Source: an uncultured Verrucomicrobiae bacterium | GTDB lineage: Bacteria > Verrucomicrobiota > Verrucomicrobiia > Limisphaerales > Palsa-1400 | Reading direction: 5' to 3' | DNA: 64,000 bases | Assembly: GCA_963707025.1 (NCBI GenBank) | Contig: CAVPOM010000003.1 | Span: forward strand, 291,750 to 355,749 | Shown here: piece by piece, positions 30,375-39,179 of the stretch | Position numbering within the stretch: the first letter of the stretch is position 1 | Layout: each line of letters starts with the position of its first letter | Notes under the pieces: model-generated | Seen by the model: the letters and a program-made list of their open reading frames with translations, nothing else | Databases searched by the model: none | Told to the model about the DNA's origin: nothing | Program-made: the position numbers and the translations under genes

Positions 30375-33300
30375 TCATAAGGTGGAAACCAACTCGCGGG
30401 CTTTTTGCAAGGCGTCGGGGAGTTTGCCCACCTCTTTGCCGCCGCCGCGGGCGTTGTCCGCCTTGCCGCCGCCTTTGCCGCCGACCAGCGGGGCGATGGC
30501 CTGGATGATCTTGCCCGCCTGGAATTTGGCGGTGGCGTCTGGAGAGACTGTGGCCACCAGGGAGACGGCCCCGTTGGACGAACCACCCAGAACGACCACG
30601 CCTTTGAACTGGCTCTTCAAGGCATCGGCCACGGCTTGGAGGAAATCGCCATCCACGGCGCCGAGGTTTTCGATGATGGCCTGGGTGGTCTGCGTGGACA
30701 TGGTGGACATCGTGGACTTGAGGAGGGCGTGTGCGGTTTCAGCGGCTTGCTTTTGCTGGGAGGCTTTGCGTTGTTTTTCCAGGTCTTTTTGCTGGGTCAG
30801 GAGAGAATCGAGTTTTCTCTCCAGTTCGGCGACGGGGGAGTTGACTTTGCCGGCCAGGGTGGAAATGAGGGTGGTTTCCTCGCGCGCTTTTTCGTAGGCG
30901 CGCAGTCCAGCCACGGCTTCGATGCGGCGAATGCCCGCGGCGACGGCGCTTTCGCTCACGATGCGGAACAAGCCGAGCTCGCCGGTGGCGCGGGTGTGGG
31001 TGCCGCCGCAAAGCTCCATGGAATAACCGTCCAATCCACCGGCGCGGCCGCCGATTTGCACGACGCGAACCAGGTCGCCGTATTTCTCGCCGAAGAATTG
31101 CATGACCTCCTTGCGGCCCTTGATTTGAGCGTAGGGAATTTCGGTCCAGGTGACGCCGGCGTTTTCGAGGATGCGCTCGTTGACCAGCTTTTCCACGTCG
31201 GCGACTTGGGAGGGAGCGAGCGCGGCGCTGCTGAAGTCGAAGGTCAGCTTGTCCGGGCCGACGTAGGAGCCTTTTTGGGTGGCGTCATGGCTGACAACTT
31301 CGTGCAAGGCCCAATGGAGCAAATGGGCGACGGTGTGATGGCGCTGGATGGCGGCGCGGCGCGGGACGTTGACGCGAAGCTCGACCTTTGCGCCCGGCTC
31401 CGGCGCGTCTTTGCCGGCCAGGAAATGGAGGAAGGTGTTGCCGGTTTTCTGAGTATTGACAATCTGCCAGATTTTTCCGCCGGCCTGAATTTCGCCGGTG
31501 TCGCCGACTTGGCCGCCCATTTCGGCATAGAGGGGAGAGGTGCCGAGGGTGACGGCTGTCTTGTCTTTGATGTTGACAGCGGCGAGGACGGTGGAGGAGG
31601 CGGTCAGGCGGTCGAATCCGACGAAATCGGTCGGATGGGACGTATCGAGGTTGGAAGCGGCGATGATTTCTTTTTTTTGGGCGGCGCGGGCGCGGGCGCG
31701 CTGCTCCTCCATCAGCCTTTCGAAATCGAGAGTGTCAACGGCCAGCCCGCGCTCGCGAGCCATAAGCTCTGTGAGGTCCAGAGGGAAACCATAAGTATCA
31801 TAAAGAGTGAATGCCCAATCCCCTGCAAAGAGCGGTTGCTTTTCTTCCATCACTTTCGCAGAACCTTTCGCGATTTTTACATACTCATCAAAGAACTTTA
31901 GGCCGCGATCAAGCGTCTTATTAAACGCCTCTTCTTCGGCCTTGATCACTTCTTGGACATGGGCTTGTTTCTTGCGGAGTTCTGGAAAGACATCCCCCAT
32001 GGTTTCGACGAGGACTTCCACCAGTTTGTAGAAGAATGGTTCGTGGAAACCGAGGGTGCGGCCGTAGCGGACGGCGCGGCGCAGGATGCGGCGCAGGACG
32101 TAGTTGCGGTCGGTGTTGGCGGGGAGAATGCCGTCGGCAATGGAAAAACTCAGGGTGCGGATGTGATCGGCGATGACGCGAAAGGCGATGTCTATTTTTT
32201 CCTGTTCGGATTGCAGGGGAGCGCACGCGCCCTCGCGTGCAGGGGTTGACGCCTCGTCAACCGCATCTTGAGTGTTCGGAGATGCCATCAGCGAGGGCGC
32301 TGATGGCGACACGCGAGGGCGCGTGTGCTCCCCGGAGGTGTCGGTCCACAGCCACGGGTAATCCCCGGTCACCTGCGCGACGCCTGCCTGCCAGGGATTC
32401 TGACAGATGTAATGGAACTTTTCTTCCATGTCGGACGCTCCGCGAATCATCCGGTCCAATGATTCTTGCGCCCAAACGTGTCCTGTCTGGCCGGAAATCT
32501 GGTTAATGTTATGGGCGCTGGCGGACTTGATGCCTTGCAGTATTTCGCGCAGCGGCCAGAAAACCGGCTGGCCTTCCTTGTCCTGTTCCTTGATTTGTGG
32601 CTCGAACAGCAGGTGAACATGGTCGGGCATGACACACGCGGCGTAGAGTTGATACTGCCGCTGTTCGTTGGCGTAAAGAATGCACTTGAGCACAATGTCG
32701 CGCTCGGGGGCGGCAAGTTGGCGGCGCTGGTGCGTGGAAAAAGTGACCATGTATTTGGCCCATGGTCGCTCGAAATGAGGAAGGTTGCGGCGGGAATACT
32801 CGGCCTCGATAACGCCGGACGGTCCAGGAGCCGACCGAGGGGGCGCGGTCGGCAACACGCGAGGGCGCGTGTGCTCCCCGGGCAGGGTGCTGGCGTATTT
32901 TTTGCCGCTGAGGTTTTCCAGACGGTCGAAGATGGGGCGGAAGATGTCGGTTTCGTAGTTGGAGATGACGCGGCTGAAATCGGTGAAATTCCTGGTGTTC
33001 TGCAGGATGCCCGTCACACGCTCGAAACCCATGCCGGTGTCCACATGCTGGGCGGGCAAGGGGGAAAAGGTTCCGTCGGGATTGGCGTTGAATTGGATGA
33101 AGACCAGGTTCCATATTTCAATGCAACGGGCGTCGCCTTTGTTAACCAAACTGCCTTTGGTGTCGCCGGCAGGTGTCAGGTCAACGTGGATTTCGCTGCA
33201 TGGGCCGCAGGGGCCGGTTTCGCCCATCATCCAGAAGTTGTCCTTTTTGCCGCCGTGGACGACGTGGACTTTGGGGTCCAGGCCGGCGGCGGAGAATTTG

Positions 33301-33782
33301 GCGGTCCAAAAATCATAAGCTTCCTGATCCAAGTCGCTGGGCTCGCCTTTGGCTTTGTCGGGGCTGTAAACGGTGGCGTAGAGGCGTTTGGCAGGGAAGC
33401 CCCACTTTTCCACGACCAGTTCCCAAGCCCATGCGATGGCCTCTTTCTTGAAGTAATCGCCGAAGCTCCAGTTGCCGAGCATCTCGAAGAAGGTGTGGTG
33501 ATAGGTGTCCAGGCCGACGTCTTCCAGGTCATTGTGTTTGCCGCCGGCGCGGATGCACTTCTGGGTGTCGGCGGCGCGGGTGGGCTTGCCGGGGATGGCG
33601 CCGGGCCATTGGTCAACGTCGGGCGCGCGCTGGTTGAGGAAAATGGGGACGAACTGGTTCATGCCCGCGTTGGTGAAGAGCAGGCCGGGGGAATCGGGCA
33701 TCAGGCTGGCGGAAGGCACAATGGTGTGCCCTTTGGATTTGAAAAAATCCAGGAAGGATCGTCGAATTTCAGCGGAAGTCAT
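30375..33782 (-). CDS. alaS: Alanine--tRNA ligase (1135 aa) with an in-frame RAYT insertion
   Basis: LFTNAGMNQF, HHTFFEMLGNWSFGDYFK, VDTGMGFER, RVIADHIR, HHTVAHLLH/CGGTH editing site, C-Ala GGKGGG. Confidence 0.98.
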   Translation of the reverse strand: MTSAEIRRSFLDFFKSKGHTIVPSASLMPDSPGLLFTNAGMNQFVPIFLNQRAPDVDQWPGAIPGKPTRAADTQKCIRAGGKHNDLEDVGLDTYHHTFFEMLGNWSFGDYFKKEAIAWAWELVVEKWGFPAKRLYATVYSPDKAKGEPSDLDQEAYDFWTAKFSAAGLDPKVHVVHGGKKDNFWMMGETGPCGPCSEIHVDLTPAGDTKGSLVNKGDARCIEIWNLVFIQFNANPDGTFSPLPAQHVDTGMGFERVTGILQNTRNFTDFSRVISNYETDIFRPIFDRLENLSGKKYASTLPGEHTRPRVLPTAPPRSAPGPSGVIEAEYSRRNLPHFERPWAKYMVTFSTHQRRQLAAPERDIVLKCILYANEQRQYQLYAACVMPDHVHLLFEPQIKEQDKEGQPVFWPLREILQGIKSASAHNINQISGQTGHVWAQESLDRMIRGASDMEEKFHYICQNPWQAGVAQVTGDYPWLWTDTSGEHTRPRVSPSAPSLMASPNTQDAVDEASTPAREGACAPLQSEQEKIDIAFRVIADHIRTLSFSIADGILPANTDRNYVLRRILRRAVRYGRTLGFHEPFFYKLVEVLVETMGDVFPELRKKQAHVQEVIKAEEEAFNKTLDRGLKFFDEYVKIAKGSAKVMEEKQPLFAGDWAFTLYDTYGFPLDLTELMARERGLAVDTLDFERLMEEQRARARAAQKKEIIAASNLDTSHPTDFVGFDRLTASSTVLAAVNIKDKTAVTLGTSPLYAEMGGQVGDTGEIQAGGKIWQIVNTQKTGNTFLHFLAGKDAPEPGAKVELRVNVPRRAAIQRHHTVAHLLHWALHEVVSHDATQKGSYVGPDKLTFDFSSAALAPSQVADVEKLVNERILENAGVTWTEIPYAQIKGRKEVMQFFGEKYGDLVRVVQIGGRAGGLDGYSMELCGGTHTRATGELGLFRIVSESAVAAGIRRIEAVAGLRAYEKAREETTLISTLAGKVNSPVAELERKLDSLLTQQKDLEKQRKASQQKQAAETAHALLKSTMSTMSTQTTQAIIENLGAVDGDFLQAVADALKSQFKGVVVLGGSSNGAVSLVATVSPDATAKFQAGKIIQAIAPLVGGKGGGKADNARGGGKEVGKLPDALQKARELVSTL
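32216..32880 (-). mobile_element. REP-flanked RAYT (Y1/HUH tyrosine transposase) cassette in frame within alaS
   Basis: RRNLPH, YMVTFST, CVMPDHVHLL (HUH, 32613-32621), VWAQESLDRMIR, YICQNP (Tyr, 32409-32411), DYPW; REP copies at 32855-32880, 32309-32335 and inverted at 32216-32240. Confidence 0.9.
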
Positions 33783-33968
33783 CCGAGCCAGTTTAAAGTC
33801 AGGGGTCTGAAGTGCAAAGCTCTTTTGGCGGAAAAGCGTTGTCCTCCGGCAGGCCGGGCCGGCCTGGCAAAGGATCTTCATCTTCCCTTAAGGTTGACCA
33901 TGTTAGATTGCGGAATGATAAAAAGCAGTTTCGTTTAAACGTTGGTTCAAATAAAAAAAGTCATCATT

Positions 33969-34760
33969 ATGAATACGCCATGGATCACATCTCGCGCGGC
34001 GGCCGGTGCTTCGCGCCGCCGTTTTCTCCAACAATTCGGTCTGGGCGCGGCCCTGTTCACAGTGCGCGGCGCCTTTGCCGAGGAACTGGCGCGCCCCACG
34101 GCTTGGGTGGAAGAAGGCCCGTTCTATCCGCCCAAACTGCCGCTGGACACGGACAACGACCTGATCATCGTCAACGACTCGATTACGCCGGCGATCGGTG
34201 AGATCACCCACCTGAGCGGGCGGTTGCTGGACGGCAAAGGCGATGCGGTGCGCAACGCCACCATCGAAATCTGGGAAGTGGACCACACCGGGGTTTACCT
34301 GGCAGACCGGCCAAATCGAAACAAGTTTGACGCCAATTTCCAGGGGTTTGGCCGGTTTCTCACCAGTTCGACCGGCGAGTATTATTTTCGCACCCTCAAG
34401 CCGGTGCGTTACACCGGACGCCAGGCGCCGCATATTCATTTCAAGGTCAAGATGAAGGGTCGCCAGGCCTGGACCACCCAACTTTTTATCAAAGGCTTTC
34501 CGGGCAATGCCGGGGACGGCGTTTATCAAGGCATTGGGGATGCCCAGGCGCAGGAGACGGTGACGGTGGATTTCGCCCCGCTGAAAGGGTCGGAGATTGG
34601 GGAACTGTCGGCCAAATTCGACATCGTGCTCGGGCGAACGCCGCGGGAGGATGAAAATGGCAATTTGCGGGGTGGCCGCCGTGGCCGGGGCGGCCCGGGC
34701 CAGGGAGGCGGACCGGCCGGTGGCCGCCGATTCGGCCCACCGCCGGGCGAGGGTGGCTAA
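33969..34760 (+). CDS. Tat-exported intradiol ring-cleavage dioxygenase family protein
   Basis: SRRRFLQ Tat motif, EGPFY, IEIWE, RY.GR..PHIHF. Confidence 0.88.
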   Translation: MNTPWITSRAAAGASRRRFLQQFGLGAALFTVRGAFAEELARPTAWVEEGPFYPPKLPLDTDNDLIIVNDSITPAIGEITHLSGRLLDGKGDAVRNATIEIWEVDHTGVYLADRPNRNKFDANFQGFGRFLTSSTGEYYFRTLKPVRYTGRQAPHIHFKVKMKGRQAWTTQLFIKGFPGNAGDGVYQGIGDAQAQETVTVDFAPLKGSEIGELSAKFDIVLGRTPREDENGNLRGGRRGRGGPGQGGGPAGGRRFGPPPGEGG

Positions 34761-35564: not shown

Positions 35565-35623
35565 AGGATAGCTGCGGGCGGCGAGACACGGCCCGCCGCG
35601 CGCGGGGGCGGGTGCGCTCCCCG

Positions 35624-38991: not shown

Positions 38992-39179
38992 GGGGTGTAT
39001 TTAACACCACTCAACAGCAAAGGCAAGCCTGTCGTGGCCAGGGGGCAGACGCCTCTGCATTGAGTGGGGTTGGTGCGGGTGCGGGGGCGCGTGCGCTCCC
39101 CGGCGGCGGACGATCCGCGCCGGCAGGCCGGGCAGCATGAAATTCAATGGAGGCATGGTGCTTTGGCGGGGTGGCCGCG

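Follow-up and report, generated by a model that had tools for sequence, protein, structure and literature searches.

The only alaS gene that we found in the genome of an uncultured Verrucomicrobiae bacterium (Limisphaerales, Palsa-1400; GenBank assembly GCA_963707025.1) carries within its uninterrupted reading frame a complete REPtron, namely a REP-associated tyrosine transposase (RAYT) bounded by repetitive extragenic palindromic (REP) units of a family that is repeated through the same genome. The gene encodes alanyl-tRNA synthetase (AlaRS) and lies on the minus strand of the window, by which we mean the whole 64,000-nt stretch of DNA analysed here (contig CAVPOM010000003.1, positions 291,750 to 355,749 of the forward strand); coordinates below are window positions unless they carry a genome label. 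The anatomy of the insert is that of a RAYT family member, present as a single copy and under selection in its core, the distribution of such inserts among relatives is patchy and swapped, and the same RAYT clade sits in many housekeeping genes. We consider it likely that the whole is a mobile, non-splicing REPtron which resides in a loop of AlaRS and is translated as part of its host.

A RAYT domain embedded in alanyl-tRNA synthetase

The minus-strand open reading frame (ORF) at 30375..33881 is open across 1168 codons, and from the conserved start MTSAEIR at 33782 the alaS coding sequence (30375..33782, minus strand) runs for 1135 codons plus a stop, uninterrupted, as an earlier sequence-only reading of this DNA had described. 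Pfam reports four families in the protein: tRNA-synt_2c (599 bits), tRNA_SAD (57.2 bits), DHHA1 (46.8 bits) and Y1_Tnp; the catalytic and recognition region, the editing domain and the DHHA1/C-Ala part of a bacterial AlaRS are all present. The tRNA-synt_2c match is broken into two stretches around Y1_Tnp (PF01797) at residues 343-431 (28.4 bits, cut-off 23), which is the nesting that the sequence-only reading had expected of a hidden Markov model scan. The first stretch falls in residues 1-301 (32880..33782, minus strand), the catalytic core up to KKYASTLP, whereas residues 526-1135 with the stop (30375..32207, minus strand) hold the tRNA-recognition helices (EQEKIDIAFRVIADHIR...), the tRNA_SAD editing domain and DHHA1/C-Ala. 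Between them lies an extra block of 224 aa (residues 302-525, window 32879..32208, minus strand), close to the insert of about 220 aa at 32216-32880 first proposed, whose limits were essentially right. All the motifs quoted for it are there, with KKYASTLP at residues 294-301, RRNLPH at 331-336, HVHLL at 388-392, YICQNP at 458-463, DYPW at 474-477 and EQEKIDIAF at 526-534. AlaRS proteins of relatives that have no insert are 895-915 aa long, in keeping with the usual bacterial length of roughly 870-900 aa, and the position of the insert, placed by the earlier reading after motif 3 and before the tRNA-recognition helices, is a variable loop of 8-24 aa between the helix after motif 3 and the VIADHIR helix.

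Several lines of evidence identify the block. The curated NCBIfam equivalog NF047646, ‘REP-associated tyrosine transposase’, matches it at 84.7 bits (cut-off 80) over model positions 4-145 of 146. The RAYT core (residues 329-479, YSRRNLPHF ... DYPWLW; 32346..32798, minus strand) is modelled with a predicted local distance difference test score (pLDDT) of ~90-98, and its fold is nearest to 4ER8, the E. coli TnpA-REP bound to a REP hairpin. The HUH motif H388-V389-H390 (32613..32621, minus strand) and the presumed catalytic Tyr458 on the last long helix (KFHYICQNPW; 32409..32411, minus strand) are intact, and align with PEHMH and DYIYINP of 4er8_A. At the sequence level the match to 4er8_A is weak (phmmer against the PDB, E 0.025). 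When the insert was modelled alone from an alignment of 74 sequences, the core reached pLDDT ~95-98 and Foldseek returned 4er8_A as the top match (E 2.1e-8, target TM-score 0.66, root-mean-square deviation 3.1 over 150 columns), followed by the ISDra2 and IS608 TnpA transposases. The insert is thus confirmed as a member of the RAYT/TnpA-REP family, as first supposed. In the full-length model the core (~335-482) is again confident, and segments 301-334 and 483-523 fall below pLDDT 50, as expected if these REP-encoded segments are flexible linkers.

The alaS RAYT differs from a free-standing gene with its own start and stop. There is no Met at the point where stand-alone relatives begin, and the domain is embedded at residues 302-525 of the 1135-aa ORF. 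A simple consensus scan of 31900-34100 gave no sigma-70-like site on the coding strand and a single match on the other strand. The absence of a stop and of a promoter-like site on its own strand, together with the continuity of the frame with the host, suggests that the RAYT would be translated as an internal HUH/Y1 nuclease domain. It is also the only close copy in the genome: tblastn of the insert against the assembly returned the insert itself and two distant RAYT ORFs, 24-28% identical. These two, G000:C10:162518-163399 (294 aa) and G000:C6:93668-94366 (233 aa), measured stop to stop, look free-standing, and stops are reported inside the C10 match (G000 denotes the genome carrying the window, and G001 onwards the related genomes compared).

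The insert ends are units of a dispersed REP family

A 24-nt word, read as GEHTRPRV, stands at the start of the insert, a second direct copy follows immediately past the RAYT core, and the end of the insert is the reverse complement of the same word with one mismatch, translated as REGACAP. With a direct 24-mer at the left edge and an inverted copy at the right edge, the insert is bounded by inverted repeats of 24 nt. Each of these words comprises a short head and a 6-bp hairpin, with a second hairpin after it. The left REP unit (32830..32879, minus strand) consists of the 24-nt head with hairpin 1 (32856-32879) and then hairpin 2, which has a variable stem; it makes up much of the left linker (residues 302-328; 32799..32879, minus strand; pLDDT <50). 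The right end is a REPIN-like REP doublet (32216..32333, minus strand) with 24-mers at 32310-32333 (direct) and 32216-32239 (inverted) and two small hairpins between them, and it likewise encodes most of the right linker (residues 480-525; 32208..32345, minus strand; pLDDT <50). Both insert ends fold as hairpins of single-stranded DNA (ssDNA), the right end as one long hairpin at -53 to -58 kcal/mol.

The 24-mer occurs in 7 exact copies in G000 and in 28 copies at ≤4 mismatches, spread over 22 loci. Four of the other loci are inverted REP doublets, 87-128 bp apart, and the stems of the second hairpin vary between REP copies yet pair in every one of them. Of the 22 loci, 13 have no ORF that runs across the REP with ≥60 residues to either side, and for this reason we take the family to be mainly intergenic. 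Since the ends of the insert are inverted REP units of a genome-repeated family, what alaS carries is an entire REPtron rather than a domain alone. Its REP heads are read through in frame inside alaS, as in intragenic REPs and palindromic elements of the Rickettsia type, and the same holds for hypF.

The hypF gene of G000 (858 aa), outside the window, contains a type-1 REP head in the GEHTRPRV frame (G000:C18:743092-743115); this REP-only in-frame insert splits the HypF_C_2 Pfam match into two stretches. By eye, the other G000 ORFs spanning REPs, beyond alaS and hypF, look like spurious, GC-rich frames. Elsewhere in the window, two degenerate type-1 REP heads with 3 mismatches each lie on the minus strand, one at 35599..35622, at the boundary between eno and a dedA-like gene, and one at 39078-39101.

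Type-1 REP heads were counted across 41 genomes at ≤2 mismatches, with reversed-pattern controls that all gave 0. The counts are highest in the four genomes with a type-1 RAYT in alaS (G000 28, G003 84, G005 18, G008 40), and no type-1 head was found in 25 of the 41.

Purifying selection on the RAYT core

The ratio of nonsynonymous to synonymous substitutions (dN/dS) was estimated by the Nei-Gojobori method for the RAYT core in the alaS frame and for the host columns. The core gave 0.145 against 0.186 for the host between G000 and G003, 0.089 against 0.187 between G000 and G005, and 0.102 against 0.178 between G003 and G005; the insert core, at 0.089-0.145, is thus below its host in this check, which the sequence-only reading had proposed, and the host part, at 0.18-0.19, is itself under purifying selection. 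H388, H390 and Y458 are each kept in ≥90% of 101 AlaRS-RAYT proteins (P0001 plus 100 of the 120 public matches listed below, 20 partial, non-AlaRS or self rows being excluded), and the HUH and Tyr motifs are kept in 11 of 11 RAYT-bearing alaS genes of relatives. The low dN/dS of the core and the retention of HUH and Tyr imply that the frame is translated, or was until very recently, and that fold and active site are constrained.

These results bear on whether the insert is removed before the mature enzyme is made, be it through protein splicing by a new type of intein, RNA splicing in the manner of an IStron, or DNA excision catalysed by the RAYT in most cells. An IStron is a group I intron fused to an IS200/IS605 element, and enzymes of the IS200/IS605 type can excise precisely, which lends the idea some appeal, as does a host range that resembles that of inteins (replication, repair and translation genes; see below). 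Pfam, however, reports no Hint/intein family in the AlaRS ORF, and the junctions, P|GEHT with Gly on the N side and PLQS|EQEK on the C side, vary in sequence and length among relatives, unlike those of an intein. An Rfam scan of 31800-33300 likewise gave no intron or ribozyme, its only match being a chance hit to a miRNA model (E 0.82), so that no sign of an IStron or another self-splicing intron was seen. The sequence-only reading, too, had seen neither a stop nor an intein signature. RNA splicing would moreover not need a strictly kept frame with low dN/dS, and the filled allele is what is found in this assembly and in hundreds of others. We therefore regard removal as quite improbable, and the non-splicing REPtron as the better account of the alaS insert.

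Filled, empty and swapped alleles among relatives

An alaS match was obtained in 40 of 41 related genomes, and the alaS genes of 38 relatives were aligned, leaving out G033 (empty by coordinates) and G035 (broken across contigs). We define site A as the loop between KKYxSTLP and EQxxIDIAFR, which in empty alleles holds 8-24 variable residues. The alignment yielded both filled and empty alleles, as had been anticipated: site A is filled by a RAYT in 10 genomes (10 of the 37 alaS genes on the host tree), in three subtypes that each have their own REP type at the ends. Type 1 (GEHTRPRV / REGACAP) is found in G000, G003, G005 and G008, type 2 in G019, G020, G021 and G026, and type 3 in G001 and G039. 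Two genomes of the same genus as G000, G002 and G004, lack the RAYT domain, as does G014, the sister of G019. On the AlaRS tree, which has 37 rows after the removal of two partial ones, the 10 filled alleles require at least 7 changes between presence and absence, a count that is approximate because it comes from a gene tree with some weak nodes; shuffled labels gave a mean of 8.9 changes, and 7% of the shuffles were as low as the observed value.

The clearest case of a swap is G001, which belongs to the same genus as G000. The two share 87% identity in the host part and 52% in the RAYT core, whereas the G001 RAYT is 85% identical to that of G039, which belongs to a different family and has a host identity of 72%. 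The G001 alaS DNA is nevertheless genus-like up to both junctions, with 16-21 differences per 108 nt from its genus mates and 27-39 from G039. This mismatch between RAYT and host, together with the genus-like flanks, indicates that a type-3 element replaced, or arrived independently of, type 1 at the same loop, without a long recombination tract. Entry of the type-3 element into G001 through a long tract of homologous recombination was considered and is unsupported, as the flanks are genus-like to the junctions; a dip in identity in 40-codon windows beside site A is explainable by the variable linker columns. Judged from these allele comparisons, the insert is gained, lost and swapped among close relatives.

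Other departures from the simple filled or empty state were seen in the same alignment. Site A of G020 is a chimera with a type-2 left REP and RAYT and a type-1 right doublet, the latter 90% identical in DNA to that of G000, while identity between the host genes at four-fold sites is only 59%; in G029 site A holds an in-frame insert of REP sequence only. Going by the alignment, the AlaRS of Limisphaerales has further insertion hot spots, which we call sites B, C and D in the residue numbering of G000. Site B (~645) has 17-154 extra residues in 17 aligned genomes, most of them not REP-like, and in G036 it is occupied by a type-3 RAYT near residue 645; site C (~793) holds in-frame REP doublets of 35-65 aa in G019, G026 and G027; and site D (~141) has ~30 aa in G014 and G028. 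Between G019 and its sister G014, DNA identity of alaS is 88-98% at either end of the gene but only 53-79% over residues ~606-835, which include sites B and C, a pattern that suggests mosaic alleles made by recombination.

Could the join itself be an artefact of assembly, or the gene a dead alaS backed by another copy? The assembly is 88% complete and comprises 18 contigs (6.96 Mb), repeats can cause mis-joins, and no sequencing run was found that contains the stretch. Against this, the same architecture recurs in 10 relatives' genomes and in at least 86 listed database proteins with a RAYT at site A, and the host part is under purifying selection at the values given above. A second intact alaS, which the sequence-only reading had named as something that would undo its claim, was looked for by tblastn of AlaRS parts against the 18-contig assembly, and this locus alone matched. 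In four metagenome runs we found only contigs of relatives, 88-99% alike, some of which cross a junction, and two such contigs join the alaS flanks around a different, shorter filling; that relatives' contigs cross both junctions is a weak argument, these being other organisms. Taken together, a chimeric join or a dead gene seems to us highly improbable.

Related RAYTs inside other host genes

When public proteins of 624-1987 aa were searched with the insert, 1120 of 1547 candidates matched at E ≤1e-3. Nearly all of the 120 matches listed combine AlaRS with Y1_Tnp, the others including three cobalamin-dependent methionine synthases (MetH) and two threonyl-tRNA synthetases (ThrRS). The listed proteins come from Verrucomicrobiota metagenome bins (labelled Verrucomicrobiae or Limisphaerales), and many have been named automatically in public databases as ‘alanyl-tRNA synthetase/REP element-mobilizing transposase RayT’. 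A single site-A RAYT is present in 86 of the 120 listed matches, and two RAYT cores are present in 11 listed proteins, namely eight AlaRS proteins or fragments and all three MetH. Among the AlaRS, P0003, P0005, P0006, P0010, P0011 and P0014 have two RAYTs of different subtypes, one at site A and one at a later site; the MetH proteins P0016, P0017 and P0024 are 1648-1692 aa long with two RAYT domains each.

The core was also compared with 1.84 billion cluster representatives, which gave 4870 matches at E ≤1e-3 and 65 at ≤1e-30, a mix of stand-alone proteins of 150-300 aa and long proteins. Hosts were identified by running Pfam on the 35 longest of the best 150 of these matches: 16 were AlaRS, five RecG, four PurH and two Y1_Tnp only, and there was one each of PriA, valyl-tRNA synthetase (ValRS), a glycyl-radical enzyme, shikimate kinase, a tRNA_SAD protein, an MmeI-type methylase, ThiE and BirA. 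More distant RAYTs are present in the relatives' genomes, in frame with PriA, a DinG-like helicase, DnaE, a UDPGP-domain protein, a proline racemase and a class II synthetase. Among 144 RAYT cores placed on a tree, those of MetH, ThrRS, PriA and the class II synthetase of G005 interleave with the alaS clades, and the type-3 clade (support 1.0) contains occupants of both site A and site B. The alaS RAYT is one case of a widespread and, it seems, undescribed habit of this transposase family of living inside essential genes.

The sequence-only reading had left the choice between a parasite and a domesticated domain. In the latter case AlaRS would have recruited the RAYT fold for a task of the host, for instance in regulation or the binding of nucleic acids, and the fold would no longer be the enzyme of a mobile element. 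Strong purifying selection on the core and conservation of the domain over hundreds of AlaRS clusters speak for this, as does the general description of RAYTs as housekeeping-like and vertically inherited, for which PMC6006769 cites Bertels et al. 2017. Close relatives, however, do well without the domain (G002 and G004, which share the genus of G000, and G014, the sister of G019). One loop serves three subtypes, each with REPs of its own, and one of these appears to have replaced another within a genus; the same clade also occurs in unrelated enzymes (MetH, PurH, RecG, PriA). The HUH motif, the Tyr and the flanking REPs have all been kept, which would be needless for a mere binding module. 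Gain, loss and swapping among relatives and the presence of the same clade in unrelated hosts thus favour the parasite half of the original alternative, and domestication for an AlaRS function, being less supported, is in our judgement unlikely.

Discussion

We propose that the one alaS gene, an essential gene, houses a complete REPtron in a surface loop that is variable by nature and permissive to insertion, where the RAYT domain would be translated with AlaRS and fold independently. Two disordered linkers of ~30-45 aa, encoded by REP DNA, would tether the nuclease domain beside the synthetase. The domain may still be active as an ssDNA nuclease/ligase on REP hairpins, on those that bound it and perhaps also on the dispersed ones. 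By living in an essential gene, the element would gain expression and be shielded from deletion, frameshift and nonsense decay, in the manner of an intein but without splicing. The element family could move between loops and genes, probably with REPs that already lie in a loop as its landing pads, and homologous recombination between alleles of alaS may now and then contribute to its spread. The REP-only sites and the G020 chimera are compatible with such landing pads but are no proof of them.

Several points weigh against the translated and mobile REPtron as proposed here. No RNA run containing the stretch was found, and no run of any kind contains more than 0.18 of the words of the stretch. 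AlaRS residues 39-107, in the catalytic domain, are poorly modelled (pLDDT <50), which limits what the model tells of a clash between the extra domain and the tRNA or of another steric effect. The assembly is 88% complete, so that a second alaS could in principle lie outside it. The purifying selection on the core could stem in part from the need not to misfold an essential enzyme rather than from nuclease function. In G026, alaS (G026:C178:3200-9200) is in two overlapping frames, an N-terminal ORF of 398 aa and a 1040-aa ORF that starts just before the RAYT core; this frame break at the left REP junction could be a repeat frameshift or assembly error, or a tolerated split AlaRS. The REPs themselves give no sign of adaptation to translation: the idea that they are built to be stop-free in all frames was rejected, as 12 of 28 units (43%) are stop-free against 39% of GC-matched genome windows, and the right doublet has stops in four of six frames. 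Because the REP units are not unusually stop-free, the open frame must be a product of selection on alaS and not a property built into the repeats.

The REP census also counts on this side. Type-1 REPs occur where no type-1 alaS RAYT was found (G015 27, G035 22, G001 16, G002 10), and type-2 REPs occur without a type-2 RAYT in alaS (G000 15, G003 47, G012 63), G000 itself having 15 type-2 REPs but no type-2 RAYT. A strict coupling of the alaS RAYT type to the REP family of the genome is borne out only loosely. The association is real but loose, and we attach no statistic to it because kin are not independent.

The sequence-only reading knew of no characterised example, and in the full-text literature, the coverage of which largely leaves out subscription journals, we found no description of a synthetase or another essential gene with a RAYT or Y1 transposase inside its frame; the automatic database labels mentioned above do name such fusions. 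A term search of Bertels et al. 2017 (PMC5581495) gave no occurrence. Quentin et al. 2018 (PMC6006769) discarded ‘unexpectedly long proteins’ of the family as ‘gene fusions or annotation errors’. REP-only inserts within genes are described by Di Nocera et al. 2013 (PMC3733652), with repair and tRNA synthetase genes among the hosts, and also in Opitutus terrae; the words ‘alanyl’ and ‘transposase’ are absent from four of its supplementary files. As far as the searches reach, a known family here has a new mode of life, which is widespread in public data but undescribed.

The alaS element shares features with four known systems and differs from each. Like known REPtrons and RAYTs (TnpA-REP; E. 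coli YafM, 4ER8) it has the HUH/Y1 fold and motifs, inverted flanking REPs, one copy per genome and dispersed cognate REPs, but those are free-standing in intergenic REP clusters, whereas the alaS RAYT is an internal domain that lacks a start and a stop of its own. The usual view of RAYTs is of ‘domesticated’, single-copy, free-standing transposases, the maintenance of which is unexplained. IStrons resemble the insert in being elements related to Y1 transposases that lie within coding genes without killing them; they escape by RNA self-splicing, whereas the alaS insert matches no intron model and its frame is open and selected. Homing-endonuclease inteins are likewise selfish nuclease inserts, in frame in conserved essential genes, with patchy alleles and a recurrent site. 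The alaS insert differs from them in having no Hint domain or conserved splice-junction residues and in presumably staying in the mature protein, and its nuclease belongs to the ssDNA HUH enzymes and comes with hairpin ends, in place of a homing enzyme of the LAGLIDADG or HNH type. Intragenic REPs and the palindromic elements of Rickettsia (PMC3733652, and Ogata et al. cited there) are in-frame palindromes read as 20-80 extra residues in housekeeping proteins; as described there they are non-coding repeats only, and the alaS insert carries a transposase in frame in addition. One may go further and see in the RAYT REPtrons of Verrucomicrobiota and other phyla a class of their own, ‘inteins without splicing’, which would have lost their own expression signals, live in essential enzymes as translated internal domains, use REPs as linkers, swap at recurrent loops, make a bifunctional aminoacyl-tRNA synthetase/ssDNA nuclease and tie the nuclease dose to the host; the chances of this we regard as even.

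An intact RAYT with hairpin ends is found within essential reading frames, here and in hundreds of public assemblies, selected yet gained, lost and swapped. Surveys that filter ‘too long’ transposase matches as annotation errors have discarded this class. Its members illustrate from nature that aminoacyl-tRNA synthetases, helicases and metabolic enzymes can tolerate the insertion of large domains, and they offer a testable model for the maintenance of REP families. If the fusion is expressed, selfish nucleases would have a third mode of residence in host genes, next to inteins and self-splicing introns, and the persistence of RAYTs would be explained, since a frameshift or an inexact deletion would kill the host.

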